From: a virus
Virus record (IMG/VR): IMGVR_UViG_3300005664_003236
Reading direction: 5' to 3' (one strand)
DNA: 6,666 nucleotides
In this document: positions 1 through 6,666 of the stretch, piece by piece
Layout: every line of letters begins with the position of its first letter
Numbering within the stretch: position 1 is the stretch's first letter
Made by a program: the position numbers and the translations under genes
Notes under the pieces: model-generated
The model's input: the letters and a program-made list of their open reading frames with translations, nothing else
What the model was told of the DNA's origin: nothing
Databases searched by the model: none

Positions 1-122
1 TGATCCCGGTCGGTTCCGCCGCCCGTGTTGTTTGACCTGTTGACACGACTGTCAGTCGGGCGAGGCTTACACTTCGCGGTCTTGCGTTCCTCGAATTGCT
101 TGACGCCCGCCGATCTGGCCCT
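1..122. repeat. Terminal direct repeat, copy 1 (circularisation overlap)
   Basis: Base-for-base identical to 6545-6666 (compared by eye over all 122 nt). Confidence 0.97.
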
Positions 123-275
123 AGAAGTCCAGTCGTCATACCATTTGCCACTATCCACCAGATCGTCGATCTGGCGCTCACGCGGAGTGCGCGTGGCGTC
201 ATACGCCGCCGTCATCGCTATCCGCTCTTCCAGCGTCAGTTTTTTCGGGCGGGAGGCCGAGAAGCCGCCTACCAT
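1..275 (-). CDS. 5' portion of a 104-aa junction-spanning ORF overlapping the rep 3' end; by position an analogue of phiX174 C/K or gokushovirus VP5; function unknown
   Basis: Hand translation of the minus strand from ATG 275-273 gives MVGGFSASRPKKLTLEERIAMTAAYDATRTPRERQIDDLVDSGKWYDDWTSRARSAGVKQFEERKTAKCKPRPTDSRVNRSNNTGGGTDRDQKLRFVPWCDRKS*. Codon 92 (CAG) is split between positions 2-1 and 6544. Composition is balanced (W/Y/D/E/K present) and third positions are mostly G/C, unlike the R/S/P-rich shadow frames. It overlaps rep (199-275) in the +1 frame. The start is uncertain: ATG 275 has no SD. Alternatives are ATG 215 (84 aa, GGAAGAG 9 nt upstream) and ATG 380 or 362 further upstream. Confidence 0.6.
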   Translation of the reverse strand, partial: MVGGFSASRPKKLTLEERIAMTAAYDATRTPRERQIDDLVDSGKWYDDWTSRARSAGVKQFEERKTAKCKPRPTDSRVNRSNNTGGGTDRD

Positions 276-1452
276 CGCCGCAGCACTCGCAAACCGCGAC
301 ACGTCCAAAGTGGACTTCGACGTAACCGGAAAGACGCGCGTCTTTGCCGGTTGCGGCGTCATAGTAGCGCCACCAACCATCTTCGGTGAGGTATCTTCCG
401 AAGCCGGTGGCACGAAGCGCGCTATCCTCTGTGCCATTGAGGCACCAGATACAGCGGAAACGCCACCCACGGGCGGCGATTTCCTGACGGCGCTTTTCTT
501 CGCCTTCGCGCTCACGCTGGCGGAAGTCGATATCGGCTGCGATGGTTTCGAGCGTTTCTTTTTCGTCGTTTTCTTCGACACGAAGTATCTCCATTGCTGG
601 CAAGTCATCGGCGAGCGATGCGAGGAGGGACGAGTATTGCGGCGGGCGACCTTCGCCCCGGAAAACCCGGCGATCATGGATCGCGCGCAAGTGCCAGAGC
701 AGCGCCTTGCGCCATGCTCCTGACGGCACCCAGAAGCCCCCGAAGCCGGGGATTTTAAGTTTAAGAGCCGGAAGCACGTCGCCGTTGGCGTCGAATGCTT
801 CCAGCCTTTTGACCAAGTAGCGCTCGCCTATGGCGGGGCGCTTGCTCATGCGGAACAGGCCAGTGGCGAAGTCTTCTGCCTTCGTTTCCCGCATGGTCCC
901 AGTCGATTTCTCGACCGTGAATTGGTCTTTTAATACATACGACAGCACATAATTCATGCCGCCTTCATCAGCGGTCTGGAAGGTGCAGAAACCCTTGCCC
1001 CAGACGGACCAGTGGAGGCGCTTTTCCGCGCCGCCAGGAACGGTCATTACCGTCTCCAAGTCTGTCACGACCTTGCCGAACCGCTCGACCTTGCCAAGCT
1101 GGCGAAGGTCGATATCGGAGTAAAGCACGAGGTGCCAGTGGCACCGATCGGTGCGCGAGCCTTGCTCGCCCGCCGCCAGAAAGCGGACGGTTGCGCGCGG
1201 CGATTGCTTGTGCGCCGCAGCGCGGATCCGCTTCAAGAAGCGCATAACGTCGCCGTAGTTGAAGAACCGGGCAGCATCCCGGTTTTCTTGCGTGGTTTCG
1301 TCATAGGTCAGCGCCACAATGAGAGTGTGGGGCCATTCGGCCTTTTCCATCATGGCCCGCGCGACCCAACCCTGCCGCCGCACAGCGATGCAGCTATTGC
1401 AGGTCCGACAGGCGAAGGTGTTGCCGTCTTGGGTTATGGGTCTATCACACAT
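199..1452 (-). CDS. VP4: Rolling-circle replication initiator (HUH endonuclease; Microviridae VP4 / phiX174 A-type Rep), 417 aa
   Basis: Track ORF 199..1494 trimmed to ATG 1452-1450, which has AAGGAG (1459-1464) 6 nt upstream; the track start at 1494 is TTG. RCR motifs occur in order. Motif I is LIVALTYD. Motif II is CHWHLVLY (H-W-H codons 1132-1140). Motif III is NYVLSYVLK, with two Tyr four residues apart (codons 949-951 and 937-939), as in phiX174 A. There is an N-terminal Cys cluster C-x12-C-x2-C-x2-C, which I recall being typical of gokushovirus VP4. Confidence 0.9.
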   Translation of the reverse strand: MCDRPITQDGNTFACRTCNSCIAVRRQGWVARAMMEKAEWPHTLIVALTYDETTQENRDAARFFNYGDVMRFLKRIRAAAHKQSPRATVRFLAAGEQGSRTDRCHWHLVLYSDIDLRQLGKVERFGKVVTDLETVMTVPGGAEKRLHWSVWGKGFCTFQTADEGGMNYVLSYVLKDQFTVEKSTGTMRETKAEDFATGLFRMSKRPAIGERYLVKRLEAFDANGDVLPALKLKIPGFGGFWVPSGAWRKALLWHLRAIHDRRVFRGEGRPPQYSSLLASLADDLPAMEILRVEENDEKETLETIAADIDFRQREREGEEKRRQEIAARGWRFRCIWCLNGTEDSALRATGFGRYLTEDGWWRYYDAATGKDARLSGYVEVHFGRVAVCECCGDGRRLLGLPPEKTDAGRADSDDGGV

Positions 1453-2925: not shown

Positions 2926-4515
2926 TCAGTCCTCCAGATCAAAAATGTCTTCGTCTTCGATGATATCCACGGTTTCAACCGGGGTCGGACCGAAGACGAT
3001 GGGCGTGCGCACCGCGAGCGTGGACGAGACGCGATAGGTGCAGATTTCGCCGACCGTATCGGCGAAGGGGTAGTGATCGAGGCTGGCGGGATACAGAATG
3101 TTTTCCGGAGTCACAGACACCGGGATTTCCAGTTGCCAAATCTGGCTCTTGTTCTCGACCGTGTTGGGATCGACATAACGGTTGAAACCGTAAGTCGAAT
3201 ACGACCGCTTGAGTTGATTGTAGCCCGTGTAGAGAGCAACGGTCGTTTCGTTCGCTTGCAGACAGTCGCCGTCGATTTCCCGGATGGTAACGGCCACCGG
3301 GTCCAGCGCAAGCTGGTCCGAGACGTAATTGTCCAAGCCCCACGGTTCCGACAGGAACGGATGCGGTTGCGCCGCAAGGGTTTCGTCGGGCTTAAGGACG
3401 AGGAACGTCATGATGACGCCGCCCAATTCAGTCTTGGGGATCGGGACGTTGAAGCCGACCGTCACCAGGTTGTCGGTCCGCATCACGTCGTCTTCCACAC
3501 CGCCGGTGTCGGTCGCGCCCTTGATCTGGGTCATGAAGGGCCGCACGACTTCCGCCAGAACGAAGGGCAGCTTCGCGTCATCGACTCGGAGGCCATGTGC
3601 CCAGCGGAGCACGTATTCGGTCCCGAACTGGGGATAGGCCTTGACGATCTGCTCCATCTCCCGGGTGAGCCGGTCCATCGTCTCGGCATTGTAGAAGTCG
3701 ATCAGACTGACCCCTTGGGCGGCGCCGTCGAAGACCGCCGTCAGGTCTGCGGTCGAAGTTGCGCCGCTCCCCTTGGACTTCACGGCGATATCGGTCGCGG
3801 AGGTATTCCGGGCCTTGCCGTCCGACCCGGTCGTAACGATATCCGTCCCGTCCCCATCGCGGAAGGTCGAACCCGAGGGCTGCGAGGGCGTGTTCCGGAA
3901 CAGCATACCCTTCACCGGCAAGGTCATCTGGGGAATTTCCAGATTGACCATCCCGTTGATCCGGTCATCCGGGTCGAGGACGCCATTGAGGCGATCCAGC
4001 ACCGTGTTGCCGATCAGGGCCGGGGTGAGAGCCGTGTTGGAGTGGAGGATCGTCGCCGCCTTCACATATTTCCGCTGACGCAGGAAGTTGATCGCCGCGT
4101 TGTGCGCCAAACGCGGCATTTCGCTCACCTTTTTCACCCCGGCGATGGACTTGGGATGAATGTTGCAGCGGCGCGAGATTTCGCTCTCGTCTTCGAGACC
4201 GAACAGCGGATTGCCCGAGAGCAGCTTCTCCCGGATCACTTCCGTCATCCCGGCATAGGCCGCCTCGGGGTCTTTGATCAGGTCGATGGCCTGAACCGGA
4301 ATGAAGAGCGTGACCGCCTCGAAGGTCGGCGGAGTGATCAACCGACCGGGGATCGGGTCCAACTCGGCGGTGATGTTGACGGTATAGACGCCGCCCTCGA
4401 GCGGACGCACGGCCTCGCACATGACGGGGTAAAACTTGCCGCCACGCATCTTGCCGATGGCGGTATTCCCCGCCGTTCGCGTGGAATACTTGATGGGACC
4501 TTCGGGAAGGTTCAT
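2926..4515 (-). CDS. VP1: Major capsid protein (Microviridae F / VP1 jelly-roll family), 529 aa
   Basis: ATG 4515-4513 with AAGGA (4522-4526) 6 nt upstream. Size is typical of VP1. Blocks recognised by eye against remembered references: GGKFYPVMCEAVRPLEGG (cf. phiX174 F GRLITISTTPVIAGDSF and Chlamydia-phage VP1 G.LIPI..DEVLPGDT), TLFIPVQAI (cf. FTFYVPHRH / YFFVPLRL), and AHNAAINFLRQRKY (cf. RAYNLIWN.YYRD). It lies in the same genome as a microvirus-type Rep. Confidence 0.85.
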   Translation of the reverse strand: MNLPEGPIKYSTRTAGNTAIGKMRGGKFYPVMCEAVRPLEGGVYTVNITAELDPIPGRLITPPTFEAVTLFIPVQAIDLIKDPEAAYAGMTEVIREKLLSGNPLFGLEDESEISRRCNIHPKSIAGVKKVSEMPRLAHNAAINFLRQRKYVKAATILHSNTALTPALIGNTVLDRLNGVLDPDDRINGMVNLEIPQMTLPVKGMLFRNTPSQPSGSTFRDGDGTDIVTTGSDGKARNTSATDIAVKSKGSGATSTADLTAVFDGAAQGVSLIDFYNAETMDRLTREMEQIVKAYPQFGTEYVLRWAHGLRVDDAKLPFVLAEVVRPFMTQIKGATDTGGVEDDVMRTDNLVTVGFNVPIPKTELGGVIMTFLVLKPDETLAAQPHPFLSEPWGLDNYVSDQLALDPVAVTIREIDGDCLQANETTVALYTGYNQLKRSYSTYGFNRYVDPNTVENKSQIWQLEIPVSVTPENILYPASLDHYPFADTVGEICTYRVSSTLAVRTPIVFGPTPVETVDIIEDEDIFDLED

Positions 4516-4619
4516 TTCTTTTCCTTTCTGGGTTTGAACTTGATGGTCAGTTTCTTCGCGAGGACCGCCAGCTTCCGCCGCCGCTCCTCACAGGCCTTGC
4601 AGCGACGAGGGAGTTTCAT
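4512..4619 (-). CDS. 35-aa polycationic micro-ORF, J-like (candidate DNA-condensing/packaging protein)
   Basis: Not in the ORF track (<60 aa). Hand translation gives MKLPRRCKACEERRRKLAVLAKKLTIKFKPRKEKK* (16 K/R, 3 E). It exactly fills the VP2-VP1 gap: its ATG overlaps the VP2 stop (ATGA, 4616-4619) and its TGA overlaps the VP1 start (ATGA, 4512-4515). It sits directly upstream of the capsid gene, as J does before F in phiX174. Confidence 0.6.
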   Translation of the reverse strand: MKLPRRCKACEERRRKLAVLAKKLTIKFKPRKEKK

Positions 4620-5437
4620 TGAGGAAACTGGTGTTTCCACCAGTCCCCCGACACCGAGGCGTCCCCATTCTCGCCCTGATACTTCCGCTTGGCGCGCGTC
4701 CGCCGTTGCCGCGCGTCCGCAGAGTCGCCAAAGCCGAGGAAATCATCGGCATCGGTGAACCCATAGTAATTCGACGCACGCCGCAGATTATGGCCGAGAT
4801 CGGCAGCGAACTTACCAGCGCCGTAGACCCAGGAGCCTACGTCGCCGTATTCATCTTCCGCCTGTTGCGCGGTGGACCAGCCGGGCGCACTCTCCCAGCG
4901 CAGCCCGCTTACGAACCCACCAGCGCCCCGATCAAGGCGAGGATCAGGAACAGCAATCCCGCCATCATCGCCAGGACGAAGTAAGGTCGGATCATTAAGC
5001 GGATCAGTCGCTTCATTGGCTTCTCCCTCGCCCGCCGACCCAGCGGGAGACGCACCAGCGCCTCGCTGATAGATACCCGGCTCAATCGGTCGCAGGGTAA
5101 GGGCGGTAAGCCTGTCCTGCAAGACCTCGTTTTCGCGCTGATACTGGTTCAGTTGAAGCGCGTCGGCATTGCCCTTTTTCAAGAAGGCATCCGCCGCGAA
5201 CATGGCCGCGTCGGCCAGCGCCGCGCCCATGTAATTGGTGTTGTCGCCCGCGACCGGCGCAGCCCGTTGCAACAGGGTCAGCGGGTTAAAGCCATACTTG
5301 GCACCAGCCCGCCGCGCACCTTCGGCCATGCCGAAGATGGAATTGCGCGAGGCCTCCCAGCTATCCTCGCTGTCGCCGAGGACGCCGCCGAGAAGCGAGC
5401 CGAAGGCGCTGATACCAGCGGAGAGGGGGTCACTCAT
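4616..5437 (-). CDS. Putative DNA pilot / minor capsid protein (phiX174 H / gokushovirus VP2-like), 273 aa
   Basis: ATG 5437-5435 with GGAGG (5442-5446) upstream. The call rests on architecture only. There is a Gly/Ala-rich hydrophobic N-terminus (GISAFGSLLGGVLG) and a central heptad-like segment (ALQLNQYQRENEVLQDRLTALTL). A Gly/acidic middle and a basic tail (RQRRTRAKRK) follow. It lies next to the capsid module. Confidence 0.5.
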   Translation of the reverse strand: MSDPLSAGISAFGSLLGGVLGDSEDSWEASRNSIFGMAEGARRAGAKYGFNPLTLLQRAAPVAGDNTNYMGAALADAAMFAADAFLKKGNADALQLNQYQRENEVLQDRLTALTLRPIEPGIYQRGAGASPAGSAGEGEANEATDPLNDPTLLRPGDDGGIAVPDPRLDRGAGGFVSGLRWESAPGWSTAQQAEDEYGDVGSWVYGAGKFAADLGHNLRRASNYYGFTDADDFLGFGDSADARQRRTRAKRKYQGENGDASVSGDWWKHQFPQ

Positions 5438-5679
5438 ACCACCTCCGAATCGGGATCAACATCCCGCGCCAGCTTGCGAACGTCGCGGCGGACGCAAAGG
5501 TCGGTCTGCCAGTAGATATCGGCAACCAGACTGATCGCCAAATCATAGGCCGCGTCATCCACCTCTTGATCAGCGCGCACCTCGACGAGGCGAAGCAGCG
5601 CATTTTCATAGGTGGATATGGGCGCGCGATCCGGTTGCCGGAGACGCGCCCGCACGGGGATACGAAGATGGGTGCTCAT
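5434..5679 (-). CDS. Hypothetical protein, 81 aa
   Basis: The track ORF starts at TTG 5682; ATG 5679-5677 overlaps the upstream stop as TGATG. Its stop overlaps the VP2 start (ATGA 5434-5437). Composition is protein-like (MSTHLRIPVRARLRQPDRAPISTYENALLRLVEVRADQEVDDAAYDLAISLVADIYWQTDLCVRRDVRKLARDVDPDSEVV). Confidence 0.65.
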   Translation of the reverse strand: MSTHLRIPVRARLRQPDRAPISTYENALLRLVEVRADQEVDDAAYDLAISLVADIYWQTDLCVRRDVRKLARDVDPDSEVV

Positions 5680-5867
5680 CAACGCACCATCTGTTTAACG
5701 GTCGCAATCCGCTTGGCGACCTCGTCGTCCGTCATATCGAAGAGGACCTTGACCAGATCGACCGCCACGGTGAGATCGGTCAACTCCGGGCGCATGGCGA
5801 GCCAGAAACATGCGTTCTGCATGGTCGCCTTCGACTGCCGCGCGGTCGCGGCCTTGACGCGGGCCAT
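5679..5867 (-). CDS. Hypothetical protein, 62 aa
   Basis: ATG 5867-5865. Third positions are very G/C-rich on hand inspection. It is coupled to both neighbours through TGATG overlaps. Confidence 0.65.
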   Translation of the reverse strand: MARVKAATARQSKATMQNACFWLAMRPELTDLTVAVDLVKVLFDMTDDEVAKRIATVKQMVR

Positions 5868-5995
5868 CAGAAGCCACCCGCCGCGCAGATCGAGCGATGA
5901 ATCAGCGGGGCCTCCGAAAGCAGCCAGAGGCCGAAGGCACCGGCGGCGGGACCACCCACGAAGGTAAGGATGGTCTTGAACAGCGTGGATTTCAT
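5867..5995 (-). CDS. 42-aa single-pass membrane micro-ORF (first gene of the operon); function unknown, holin-like role possible
   Basis: Not in the ORF track. Hand translation gives MKSTLFKTILTFVGGPAAGAFGLWLLSEAPLIHRSICAAGGF*. GGAG (6005-6008) lies 9 nt upstream of ATG 5995-5993. There is a hydrophobic stretch of ~21 residues (LFKTILTFVGGPAAGAFGLWLL). Third positions are mostly G/C, and the stop overlaps the next start (TGATG). Confidence 0.6.
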   Translation of the reverse strand: MKSTLFKTILTFVGGPAAGAFGLWLLSEAPLIHRSICAAGGF

Positions 5996-6028
5996 GCGAT
6001 TTTTCTCCGAACAGGTTACAGTGGTTCG

Positions 6029-6057
6029 ACTATGACAAAAATCGCCTACTCCGTAAA
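6029..6057 (-). promoter_or_regulatory. Weak sigma70-like promoter candidate for the gene train
   Basis: On the coding strand: TTTACG (6057-6052), a 17-nt spacer, then CATAGT (6034-6029), about 35 nt upstream of the first ATG in the AT-richer part of the non-coding region. This is a pattern match only. A perfect TTGACA at 6189-6184 has no acceptable -10 at 16-18 nt. Confidence 0.2.
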
Positions 6058-6096
6058 GTGTCTATCACCACTCTTTCTCCAAGATTTTGCGAGGGC

Positions 6097-6125
6097 GGAC
6101 AGGGCTTGTGCCCGTCCCTATTTTT
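6097..6125 (+). terminator. Intrinsic-terminator-like hairpin plus T5, oriented on the NON-coding (plus) strand
   Basis: ggac(a)gggc (6097-6105) pairs with gcccgtcc (6110-6117): 8 bp with one bulged A and loop ttgt. It is followed by cta + ttttt (6121-6125). On the coding strand the run is an upstream A5, so it would not terminate there. Confidence 0.3.
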
Positions 6126-6172
6126 CCTTCCAGATATAGCGCCAATTTCTTGGCTTTTTCCGACAATCCAGC

Positions 6173-6200
6173 AGGTTGCATAATGTCAAGTTCGATAAGT
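6173..6200. promoter_or_regulatory. AT-rich core next to the 19-bp hairpin: candidate origin/recombination site (phiX174 nick-site-like decamer on the coding strand; dif half-site-like GCATAATGT)
   Basis: The coding strand 6193-6184 reads GAACTTGACA, against my recollection of the phiX174 A-protein substrate CAACTTGATA (8/10). The plus strand 6178-6186 reads GCATAATGT, identical to the XerC-arm/central junction of E. coli dif (GGTGCGCATAATGTATATTATGTTAAAT). Both could be chance matches. Confidence 0.25.
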
Positions 6201-6206
6201 GAAGGC

Positions 6207-6248
6207 GACACAAGAGAGGGGGCGCTTTCGCGCCCCCTCTCTTGTGTC
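6207..6248. repeat. Perfect 19-bp inverted repeat (hairpin) with 4-nt loop; GAAA loop and GCGAAAGC cap on the coding/packaged strand
   Basis: 6207-6225 (gacacaagagagggggcgc) pairs base for base with 6230-6248 (gcgccccctctcttgtgtc). The loop 6226-6229 is tttc (GAAA on the coding strand). There is no U-tract on either side. The structure is certain; its function is unknown. Confidence 0.9.
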
Positions 6249-6315
6249 ATGCGCGTAAACGAAGGGAGATCAGTCCCAGAATGACAGAGGGGAGGCGCGA
6301 AAGCTAGCGGTCGCC

Positions 6316-6333
6316 AGAAAGGAAGGAAGGAGA
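6316..6333 (+). other. 18-nt all-purine tract (agaaaggaaggaaggaga); polypyrimidine UCUCCUUCCUUCCUUUCU on the coding strand
   Basis: Read directly. It contains a GGAA-type micro-repeat and several overlapping SD-like hexamers on the plus strand, which appear as anti-SD-like CUCCUU on the coding-sense RNA. Confidence 0.8.
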
Positions 6334-6365
6334 TGCACCAGGACGCCAAGCTGTGCCTCCGGCAC

Positions 6366-6463
6366 GGGCGAGCAGAGCCGTTCAGCCTAGGCGATCCTTG
6401 GGGCCGGACCTCGCTACGCTCGCCCCTCACATGTTCGGGGTGCGGCATCCGCCGCAGGTCCGG
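6366..6463. other. GC-rich nested helices in the region downstream of the last gene
   Basis: An 8-bp helix 6404-6411 (ccggacct) / 6456-6463 (aggtccgg) encloses a 5-bp hairpin 6442-6446/6451-6455 (gcggc-atcc-gccgc) and a CCCC/GGGG helix 6423-6426/6437-6440. A competing 8-bp pairing exists at 6366-6373 (gggcgagc) / 6418-6425 (gctcgccc). A further small hairpin lies at 6485-6490/6495-6500. Confidence 0.6.
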
Positions 6464-6504
6464 GGTAAGCGTTTTTTTGCTATGAAGCTGCAAGCAGCTT
6501 GGAG

Positions 6505-6666
6505 CTAGGATTTGCGGTCACACCACGGAACGAAACGGAGTTTCTGATCCCGGTCGGTTCCGCCGCCCGTGTTGTTTGACCTGTTGACACGACTGTCAGT
6601 CGGGCGAGGCTTACACTTCGCGGTCTTGCGTTCCTCGAATTGCTTGACGCCCGCCGATCTGGCCCT
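6505..6666 (-). CDS. 3' portion of the same junction-spanning ORF (unique part 6505-6544; 6545-6666 duplicates 1-122)
   Basis: The minus-strand frame entering at 6666 reads RARSAGVKQFEERKTAKCKPRPTDSRVNRSNNTGGGTDRDQKLRFVPWCDRKS and stops at TAG (6507-6505). There is no start codon in this copy, which explains its absence from the ORF track. Confidence 0.6.
   Translation of the reverse strand, partial: RARSAGVKQFEERKTAKCKPRPTDSRVNRSNNTGGGTDRDQKLRFVPWCDRKS
6545..6666. repeat. Terminal direct repeat, copy 2 (circularisation overlap)
   Basis: Base-for-base identical to 1-122. The repeat stops exactly at the window end. Confidence 0.97.

Follow-up and report, generated by a model that had tools for sequence, protein, structure and literature searches.

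Positions 1-275 of a 6,666-nt stretch of viral DNA (IMG/VR virus record IMGVR_UViG_3300005664_003236, read whole and hereafter called the window) very probably form the 3' half of a g10-type gene, of the kind known from Rhodobacter phage Ebor, which overlaps the replication initiation gene rep in another frame. We put the probability of this reading as a whole, with the product as a basic internal virion protein, at about 0.7. Such a gene and its likely role were already published for phage Ebor in 2025, and no new kind of system is described here; the window gene is a further member of the Ebor Gp10 family that carries an insert specific to its sub-clade. The main value of the analysis lies in annotation, as the gene was missed in this linearisation of the genome and is cut to 79-92 amino acids (aa) by gene callers in the clade.

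Results

A coding frame across the circular junction

The open reading frame (ORF) that drew attention to this region runs on the minus strand from ATG 275-273 to position 1, resumes at 6544 and ends at TAG 6507-6505, giving 315 nt and 104 aa, and its translation is the peptide quoted in an earlier, sequence-only reading of the window. It is missing from the six-frame list of the linear sequence because each half runs off one end. Bases 1-122 are an exact copy of 6545-6666, a direct terminal repeat of 122 nt, so that the genome closes into a circle of 6,544 nt with a GC content of 60.8%. The frame continues uninterrupted in three JGI contigs of the same genome that are cut elsewhere (L012, L013 and L014), and the circular junction is therefore real. 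As proposed, the frame is +1 relative to rep (1452..199, minus strand) and overlaps its 3' end, and its third positions are G/C-rich (GC3, the GC content at third codon positions, is 0.70 in the ORF and 0.69 in rep).

The ORF is protein-coding and under purifying selection. Downstream of the rep stop codon, pairwise dN/dS (the ratio of non-synonymous to synonymous substitution rates) between the window and its relatives is 0.06-0.17. The closest relative, L015, differs from the window at 8 of 238 sites there; all eight differences are synonymous, seven of them in third positions. Stops and frameshifts in related genomes had been named beforehand as findings that speak against a gene, and none occurs in any relative; in the companion comparison of codon positions, synonymous third-position change prevails, so that coding is not refuted. 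A search with the 104-aa peptide returned an identical 84-aa product called from ATG 215 and three homologues at 66-73% identity. These gene-caller products lie directly after rep, with an overlap of 17-47 nt or a gap of 13 nt, and homologues follow rep immediately in every relative.

Two statements of the sequence-only reading hold in part. The gene is indeed split by the assembly junction in this linearisation, but it is less hidden than was thought: callers find its 3' part (79-92 aa) elsewhere, and a full-length homologue is annotated in GenBank for phage Ebor. Similarly, the stretch described as roughly 700 nt of non-coding DNA does correspond to the 747 nt between the rep stop and the next gene, but only 509 nt of it (5996-6504) remain non-coding once the g10-like gene is placed.

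The gene very probably begins inside rep

Upstream of ATG 275 the frame has no stop for a further 184 codons, which lie inside rep. From comparison with related sequences, translation very probably starts at GTG 581, and coordinates 1-275 would then hold no more than the 3' half of the gene. The extent first proposed, 104 aa from ATG 275 with a 77-nt overlap, thus gives way to 206 aa and an overlap of 383 nt, in which the first 128 codons lie over the poorly conserved Rep tail (Table 1). The comparison covered 13 relatives, drawn from IMG/VR, Logan and JGI contigs, the isolates Ebor and ICBM5, and prophages in Pseudooceanicola, Mesorhizobium and Sinirhodobacter genomes and in a Rhodobacteraceae metagenome-assembled genome (MAG). 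In all 13, the frame that bears the conserved C-terminal motif (see below) opens well inside rep, typically by about 320-390 nt, and a sequence resembling a Shine-Dalgarno (SD) element precedes a start codon, after which the encoded N-terminus is basic and fits the pattern M-[A/S]-[R/K]-K-x-K. In 11 of the 13, the SD form is GGAG or a variant with one mismatch (TAGAGG, GGAAAGG) at 6-9 nt from the start; the spacing is 6-9 nt in 12 of the 13 and about 11 nt in L020, where the element reads GGAAAGG. Most relatives start with ATG and two (L002 and L010) with TTG, and in several a stop codon stands immediately ahead of the conserved start. The corresponding region of the window reads GGAGA (592-588), 6 nt, GTG (581-579) and then SKKTTKKKRSK. 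The full window product would have 206 aa, an isoelectric point (pI) of 10.7 and a net charge of +24, and the full products of the relatives have a pI of 10.7-11.6 and a net charge of +17 to +29 (n=13).

The openness of the overlap is itself informative. Across eight relatives, stops in the +1 frame fall in 79 of 2,151 rep codons upstream of the start (~3.7%), versus 0 of 944 codons within the overlap, and the joint probability of such openness under synonymous-codon shuffles of the eight genomes is ~5e-6. A further line of evidence comes from the Mesorhizobium composti prophage L023, whose g10 homologue (6665-7147; 160 aa, pI 11.6) overlaps rep by only 106 nt and in the +2 frame. As this protein is still basic in spite of the different frame, the basic N-terminal region is no by-product of the rep sequence; equally, the overlap arrangement is not fixed across the family.

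The rep/g10 overlap is also a local hotspot of divergence (window 199-581 against L015 1841-2232). Amino-acid identity between the window and L015 is 67% in the Rep tail and 66% in the g10 N-terminus, versus 93% in the remainder of Rep and 100% in the remainder of g10; the next 250 nt of intergenic DNA are 97.6% identical. This pattern suggests either that two disordered tails are under relaxed constraint or that the region is mosaic in origin.

Relationship to Ebor Gp10

Judged by profiles, motif and gene order, the ORF almost certainly belongs to the g10 (Ebor Gp10) family. Ebor Gp10 (XAV39057.1) is a 145-aa protein whose coding sequence (5719..6156) overlaps rep (4776..6065) by 347 nt (GenBank record). 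The GenBank entry carries the note 'MS verified presence in the virion', and the protein has been labelled a 'putative charge-mitigating virion protein' and a 'putative bifunctional structural protein' (XAV39057.1; PMC11980548). Its C-terminal end, ...CKMRPMDHSSKGGGSRPFVPWCKKV, has the same motif as the window protein (...CKPRP...TGGG...FVPWCDRKS), and an alignment of profiles for the window clade and the Ebor clade with hhalign gave a probability of 98.2% (E 4.9e-14) over the C-terminal 33 columns. Pairwise BLAST between the window protein and Ebor Gp10 is weak (E 0.011), so that homology rests on profiles, motif and synteny. The window has the start within rep, the C-terminal motif, the basic disordered N-terminus, the SD and start arrangement and the Tainavirinae-type genome that characterise the family.

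The two genes are alike in many respects. Both open in the +1 frame within the last third of rep and close shortly past the rep stop, in syntenic genomes. Both have an SD element, and both products begin with M-S-K-K, have a disordered N-terminus in which S, T, P and K abound and a pI of about 11, and end in CKxRP...GGG...FVPWC. The window protein differs in being longer (206 aa versus 145 aa) and starting with GTG, in running 238 nt past rep whereas Ebor g10 runs 91 nt, and in having a helical insert of ~56 aa (W[FY]DDW) together with a motif spacer of 22 residues, versus 11 in most members.

The family is broad. A profile search of 1.84 billion representative proteins (cut-off E<=1e-3, clusters at 50% identity) yielded at least 654 clusters, and protein-level homologues with the invariant motif residues extend down to 28% overall identity. 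All 155 inspected representatives carry the C-terminal motif CKxRP-x(11-22)-F[VI]P[WY]C; the median is 140 aa for length and 11.25 for pI. Scanned against Pfam and PHROG, neither the 104-aa ORF nor the 206-aa protein nor any of 12 family members matched a family, and the few stray hits were weak (BNIP3 at 0.003; phrog_8008 at 0.005 in one member, outside its conserved part). The g10-type gene is not discussed in the ICBM5 paper (PMC9753089).

These results bear on annotation. Gene calls in the clade are short because callers penalise long overlaps and non-ATG starts; pipelines systematically miss or truncate the g10-type gene, and the family has no Pfam or PHROG model. Useful landmarks are the SD element, the M[AS][RK]K.K N-terminus and the CKxRP...FVPWC C-terminus. 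Replacing the short calls by a full basic protein of 206 aa alters the predicted virion composition of widespread microviruses that infect Alphaproteobacteria.

Anatomy of the product

The predicted protein has three parts. Residues 1-114 are rich in S, T, P, A and K, carry a net charge of +19, consist to 55% of S, T, P, A and G, and are predicted to be intrinsically disordered. In an AlphaFold2 (AF2) model of the g10 protein alone, built from a 21-sequence alignment, residues 1-110 have no secondary structure and a pLDDT (the model's per-residue confidence score) of ~50. Helices follow at 117-129 and 133-143 (pLDDT 86-89), with further ones at 151-157 and 160-169, while the C-terminal motif reaches 50-65; only the helical insert is modelled with confidence.

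This helical module is present in 5 of the 155 family representatives and absent from the Ebor, ICBM5 and prophage homologues. It lies almost wholly downstream of the rep stop, under the strong purifying selection described above. The same sub-clade has the longest spacer between the two halves of the C-terminal motif, 22 residues versus a mode of 11. In the window the motif is CKPRP-x22-FVPWCDRKS, which accords with the family consensus peptide CKxRP-x(11-22)-F[V/I]PWC-[D/K][R/K], and the invariant columns are C, K, P, G, F, P, W and C. Tentatively, and with rather low odds, the core protein of this sub-clade could have become truly bifunctional by gaining, in the part without rep overlap, a folded helical module and a doubled motif loop, being both scaffold-like or self-associating and DNA-condensing, with the cysteine pair acting as a redox or metal latch. 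If so, one protein would combine the roles of phiX174 B and J.

Table 1 Features of the window and their coordinates
Feature	Coordinates	Strand	Basis or remark
g10-like gene, 5' part (codons 1-193 and two bases of codon 194)	1..581	-	Predicted start GTG 581-579
g10-like gene, 3' end (last base of codon 194, codons 195-206, stop TAG 6507-6505)	6505..6544	-	Continuation across the junction
Predicted Shine-Dalgarno GGAGA, 6 nt before GTG 581	588..592	-	Conservation in 13 relatives
Predicted dual-coding stretch, 383 nt: Rep C-terminal tail (frame 0) and basic disordered g10 N-terminal region (+1)	199..581	-
ATG first noted, Met103 of the full protein	273..275	-	Not conserved (Arg in L015); no Shine-Dalgarno
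ATG used by public gene callers, Met123 (84-aa product P0001)	213..215	-
Sub-clade helical module, aa 115-170, ...REREIDxKVxxGxW[FY]DDWxxRAR...	72..239	-	Alignment, AF2
C-terminal motif, first part, aa 171-194, CKPRPTDSRVNRSNNTGGGTDRDQ	1..71	-	hhalign, invariant columns
C-terminal motif, remainder, KLRFVPWCDRKS	6544-6508	-
rep, replication initiation protein gene, 417 aa	199..1452	-	PF23343 E 1e-11, phrog_942 E 1e-32; homologue of Ebor Rep (Gp9), identity 49% (48.7%)
Terminal redundancy of the assembly	6545..6666	.	Copy of 1-122; duplicates g10 codons 154-194
Pilot protein			Homologue of Ebor Gp3, identity 33%
Gp5			Homologue of Ebor Gp5, identity 30%
Gp6			Homologue of Ebor Gp6, identity 42%
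Amidase			Homologue of Ebor Gp7, identity 61%

Discussion

A candidate core protein of the virion

The function of this ORF had been left open, and homology to Ebor Gp10 now offers a candidate. Liquid chromatography-tandem mass spectrometry found Gp10, the major capsid protein (MCP) and the pilot protein to be the only three proteins present in significant amounts in Ebor virions (PMC11980548). Ebor Gp10 has a pI of 11.3, is conserved in the 'Tainavirinae' and was proposed to mitigate the charge of the single-stranded DNA (ssDNA) genome in the manner of J/VP8; the position of its gene was likened to that of phiX174 B (PMC11980548). By homology, the window protein would be packaged with the ssDNA in the T=1 capsid, where its basic tail would neutralise phosphate charge, doing the job of J/VP8 in other microviruses, and the conserved Cys-flanked C-terminal peptide may serve as a specific interaction module. 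For this charge-neutralising mechanism as such, our analysis tips the balance only slightly in favour. Virion presence was observed for the Ebor homologue; we infer DNA binding, charge neutralisation and copy number, as well as the role of the C-terminal motif. At an assumed 60 copies, a net charge of +24 would offset ~22% of the 6,544 phosphates of the genome. Computed likewise, the share is 20% for Ebor Gp10, 13% for phiX174 J and 25% for Chp2 ORF8, whereas short products of 84 or 104 aa would reach no more than 6-7%.

The comparison with better-known microvirus proteins leads to the same assignment, with reservations. In function, g10 most resembles J/VP8 (VP8 being ORF8 of Chp2), as it would be, by homology to Gp10, a highly basic internal virion component with a comparable charge per 60 copies. 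It differs in being 4-5 times longer (206 aa versus peptides of ~20-45 aa) and in being encoded over rep rather than beside the coat gene, and it shares no sequence similarity with them. In topology it combines features of two phiX174 genes: as annotated in RefSeq, the whole of B (+2) is contained within A, K (+1) spans the A stop codon, and C (+2) shares 4 nt with A, so that the start inside rep recalls B, and the +1 frame and the extension past the stop recall K.

Several points weigh against this reading, both for the extent of the gene and for its role. The synonymous-shuffle null is weak for any single genome (P 0.02-0.84) and informative only jointly, because the Rep sequence is itself shaped by the overlap. 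Nor does dN/dS within the overlap indicate dual coding by itself, both frames evolving fast (omega 0.5-0.9, and 0.5-0.7 between the window and L015). Initiation at GTG 581 in this particular genome is a prediction from sequence, and public callers chose ATG 215. As for the role, DNA binding is a prediction for every member of the family, and the averaged cryo-electron microscopy maps of Ebor contain no ordered Gp10 density (PMC11980548), so that a J-like, icosahedrally ordered capsid anchor is not supported. We also modelled an MCP-g10 fusion in AF2, in which the disordered N-terminus acted as linker (119 MCP homologues and none for g10 in the alignment, and an MCP monomer as partner); the MCP folded well, but the C-terminal motif reached a pLDDT of only 31-36, so that this test, a weak one, lends no support to docking. 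Finally, the MCP gene is immediately preceded by a very basic ORF of 35 aa, in the position of J in phiX174.

This small ORF deserves mention in its own right. It encodes MKLPRRCKACEERRRKLAVLAKKLTIKFKPRKEKK (window 4512-4619, minus strand; net charge +13, pI 11.1) and has 4-nt overlaps with the pilot and MCP genes. Peptides like it (..PCKACEARRAALK..AKKL..) are encoded ahead of the MCP gene in L001, L022 and L024, and are not found there in Ebor or ICBM5. The product could be a second DNA-binding core protein that shares or takes over the charge-neutralising role.

Alternative explanations

Three alternatives concern what is translated. That the ORF arose by chance in GC-rich DNA, or reflects a conserved non-coding element such as an origin, has a negligible probability: the genome is 61% GC and holds many long spurious ORFs, but the dN/dS of 0.06-0.17 and the wholly synonymous differences from L015 refute the idea, and the motif invariant at 28% identity and the 654 related clusters also stand against it. 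It is quite unlikely that only a short protein is made, of 84 aa (ATG 215) or 104 aa (ATG 275), with the openness of the +1 frame further upstream being incidental. Callers do report products of 79-92 aa in this clade, the strongly conserved helical module and C-terminal motif lie almost wholly within the 84 aa, and GGAAGAG stands upstream of ATG 215. Against this, ATG 275 is replaced by an Arg codon in L015, and the TTG or GTG codons at which the short calls of L002, L010 and L011 begin are not homologous. Moreover, Ebor, ICBM5, L001 and the prophages have ~30 codons past rep and no start codon among them, so that the gene must begin inside rep there, and all 13 relatives keep the SD, the start and the basic N-terminus at the corresponding position. 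The short forms would also carry a net charge of only +6 to +8, far from the +24 of the full protein and the +17 to +29 across the family. A shorter isoform alongside the full protein is possible. Programmed frameshifting or transcriptional slippage from rep, yielding a Rep-g10 C-terminal fusion, would fit the 184 open codons upstream of ATG 275 and the run of six A at 245-240 within the overlap. We regard it as very remote: the A run is not conserved, even in L015 (AGGAAACTG), the conserved SD and start mark independent initiation, the L023 gene lies in the other frame with a 106-nt overlap, and Ebor virions contain Gp10 while Rep (Gp9) was not detected in them.

The remaining alternatives accept a full-length protein and assign it another function. 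It might be mainly an internal scaffolding protein, analogous to phiX174 B or gokushovirus VP3, whose aromatic C-terminus binds coat-protein pentamers during assembly, DNA charge neutralisation then being secondary or left to the 35-aa basic ORF. The variable N-terminus and conserved aromatic C-terminus of phiX174 B recur in g10, whose N-terminus is likewise disordered; size and position inside the replication gene, in another frame, are also reminiscent of B, the wording 'putative bifunctional structural protein' in GenBank is compatible with such a role, no other scaffolding gene has been identified, and the ORF ahead of the MCP gene is of J size. We nevertheless consider this unlikely. B is expelled on packaging and absent from mature virions, whereas the Ebor homologue is retained in them; B is not basic, its acidic residues slightly outnumbering the basic ones in our own count of its sequence, whereas g10 is strongly so; and B is in the +2 frame and wholly within A, whereas g10 is +1 and runs past the stop. 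No sequence similarity connects g10 with B or VP3 (no Pfam match), and AF2 placed no C-terminal dock on the MCP monomer, although that is a weak test. Homologues of Gp5 and Gp6, which are absent from Ebor virions, are alternative scaffold candidates.

The sequence-only reading had instead drawn a parallel with phiX174 K/C and gokushovirus VP5, under which the product would be a non-structural accessory or DNA-packaging-switch protein. The arrangement does recall K, which is +1 to the replication gene and straddles its stop codon, and in Chp2, VP5 (ORF5) comes after the rep gene (ORF4). The parallel did not survive comparison of the proteins and is highly unlikely to hold: hhalign gave probabilities of at most 0.2% against phiX174 B, K, C and J and against Chp2 VP3, ORF8 (VP8) and ORF5 (VP5). 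K is a small membrane protein of 56 aa, leucine-rich and non-structural, whereas g10 is basic and disordered and its Ebor homologue is a virion component. We therefore retain the reading of g10 as a basic internal virion protein at the probability given above.

Genome type, host and non-coding region

Convincing genes of the window lie on the minus strand only. Its 529-aa protein is the MCP: it matches the Ebor capsid protein of known structure (PDB 9FFG/9FFH, E 2e-167), and tblastn gives 50-52% identity to Ebor and Ascunsovirus oldenburgi ICBM5, while Pfam and PHROG scans of the MCP were without match. Homologues of Ebor proteins occur in the same gene order, at identities of ~30-60% (Table 1). 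On the strength of this MCP match and synteny, rather than of a phylogeny, the window virus is a Tainavirinae-like microvirus that shares its gene order with Rhodobacter phage Ebor. Missing from the window is a homologue of the methylase gene of Ebor (Gp8); its place is taken by a gap of 239 nt between the amidase gene and rep (1453-1691), where the only ORF, of 61 codons from a TTG (1731-1546), has a basic product and was left uncalled by public gene callers.

Relatives are integrated in the genomes of Pseudooceanicola marinus, Sinirhodobacter huangdaonensis and Mesorhizobium composti and in a Rhodobacteraceae MAG (L022-L025), and MCP homologues (within hits P0178-P0231) come from Rhodovulum, Rhodobacter ferrooxidans and Rubellimicrobium records. 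These occurrences point to an alphaproteobacterial host, probably of the Rhodobacterales.

An Rfam scan of the window at gathering thresholds found no match, and a search for the Ebor dif/attP motif gave no convincing match in the window, the best (10 of 28 mismatches) lying within the MCP gene. The 509-nt non-coding region contains a perfect 19-bp inverted repeat with a 4-nt loop (GACACAAGAGAGGGGGCGC / GCGCCCCCTCTCTTGTGTC, window 6207-6248), which is not followed by a T-run. Adjoining it at 6173-6200 is a weak dif-like sequence, AGGTTGCATAATGTCAAGTTCGATAAGT, with a good XerC-arm half and 11 mismatches to the 28-nt E. coli dif. The hairpin may be a site of recombination, or it may act in priming or as an origin.

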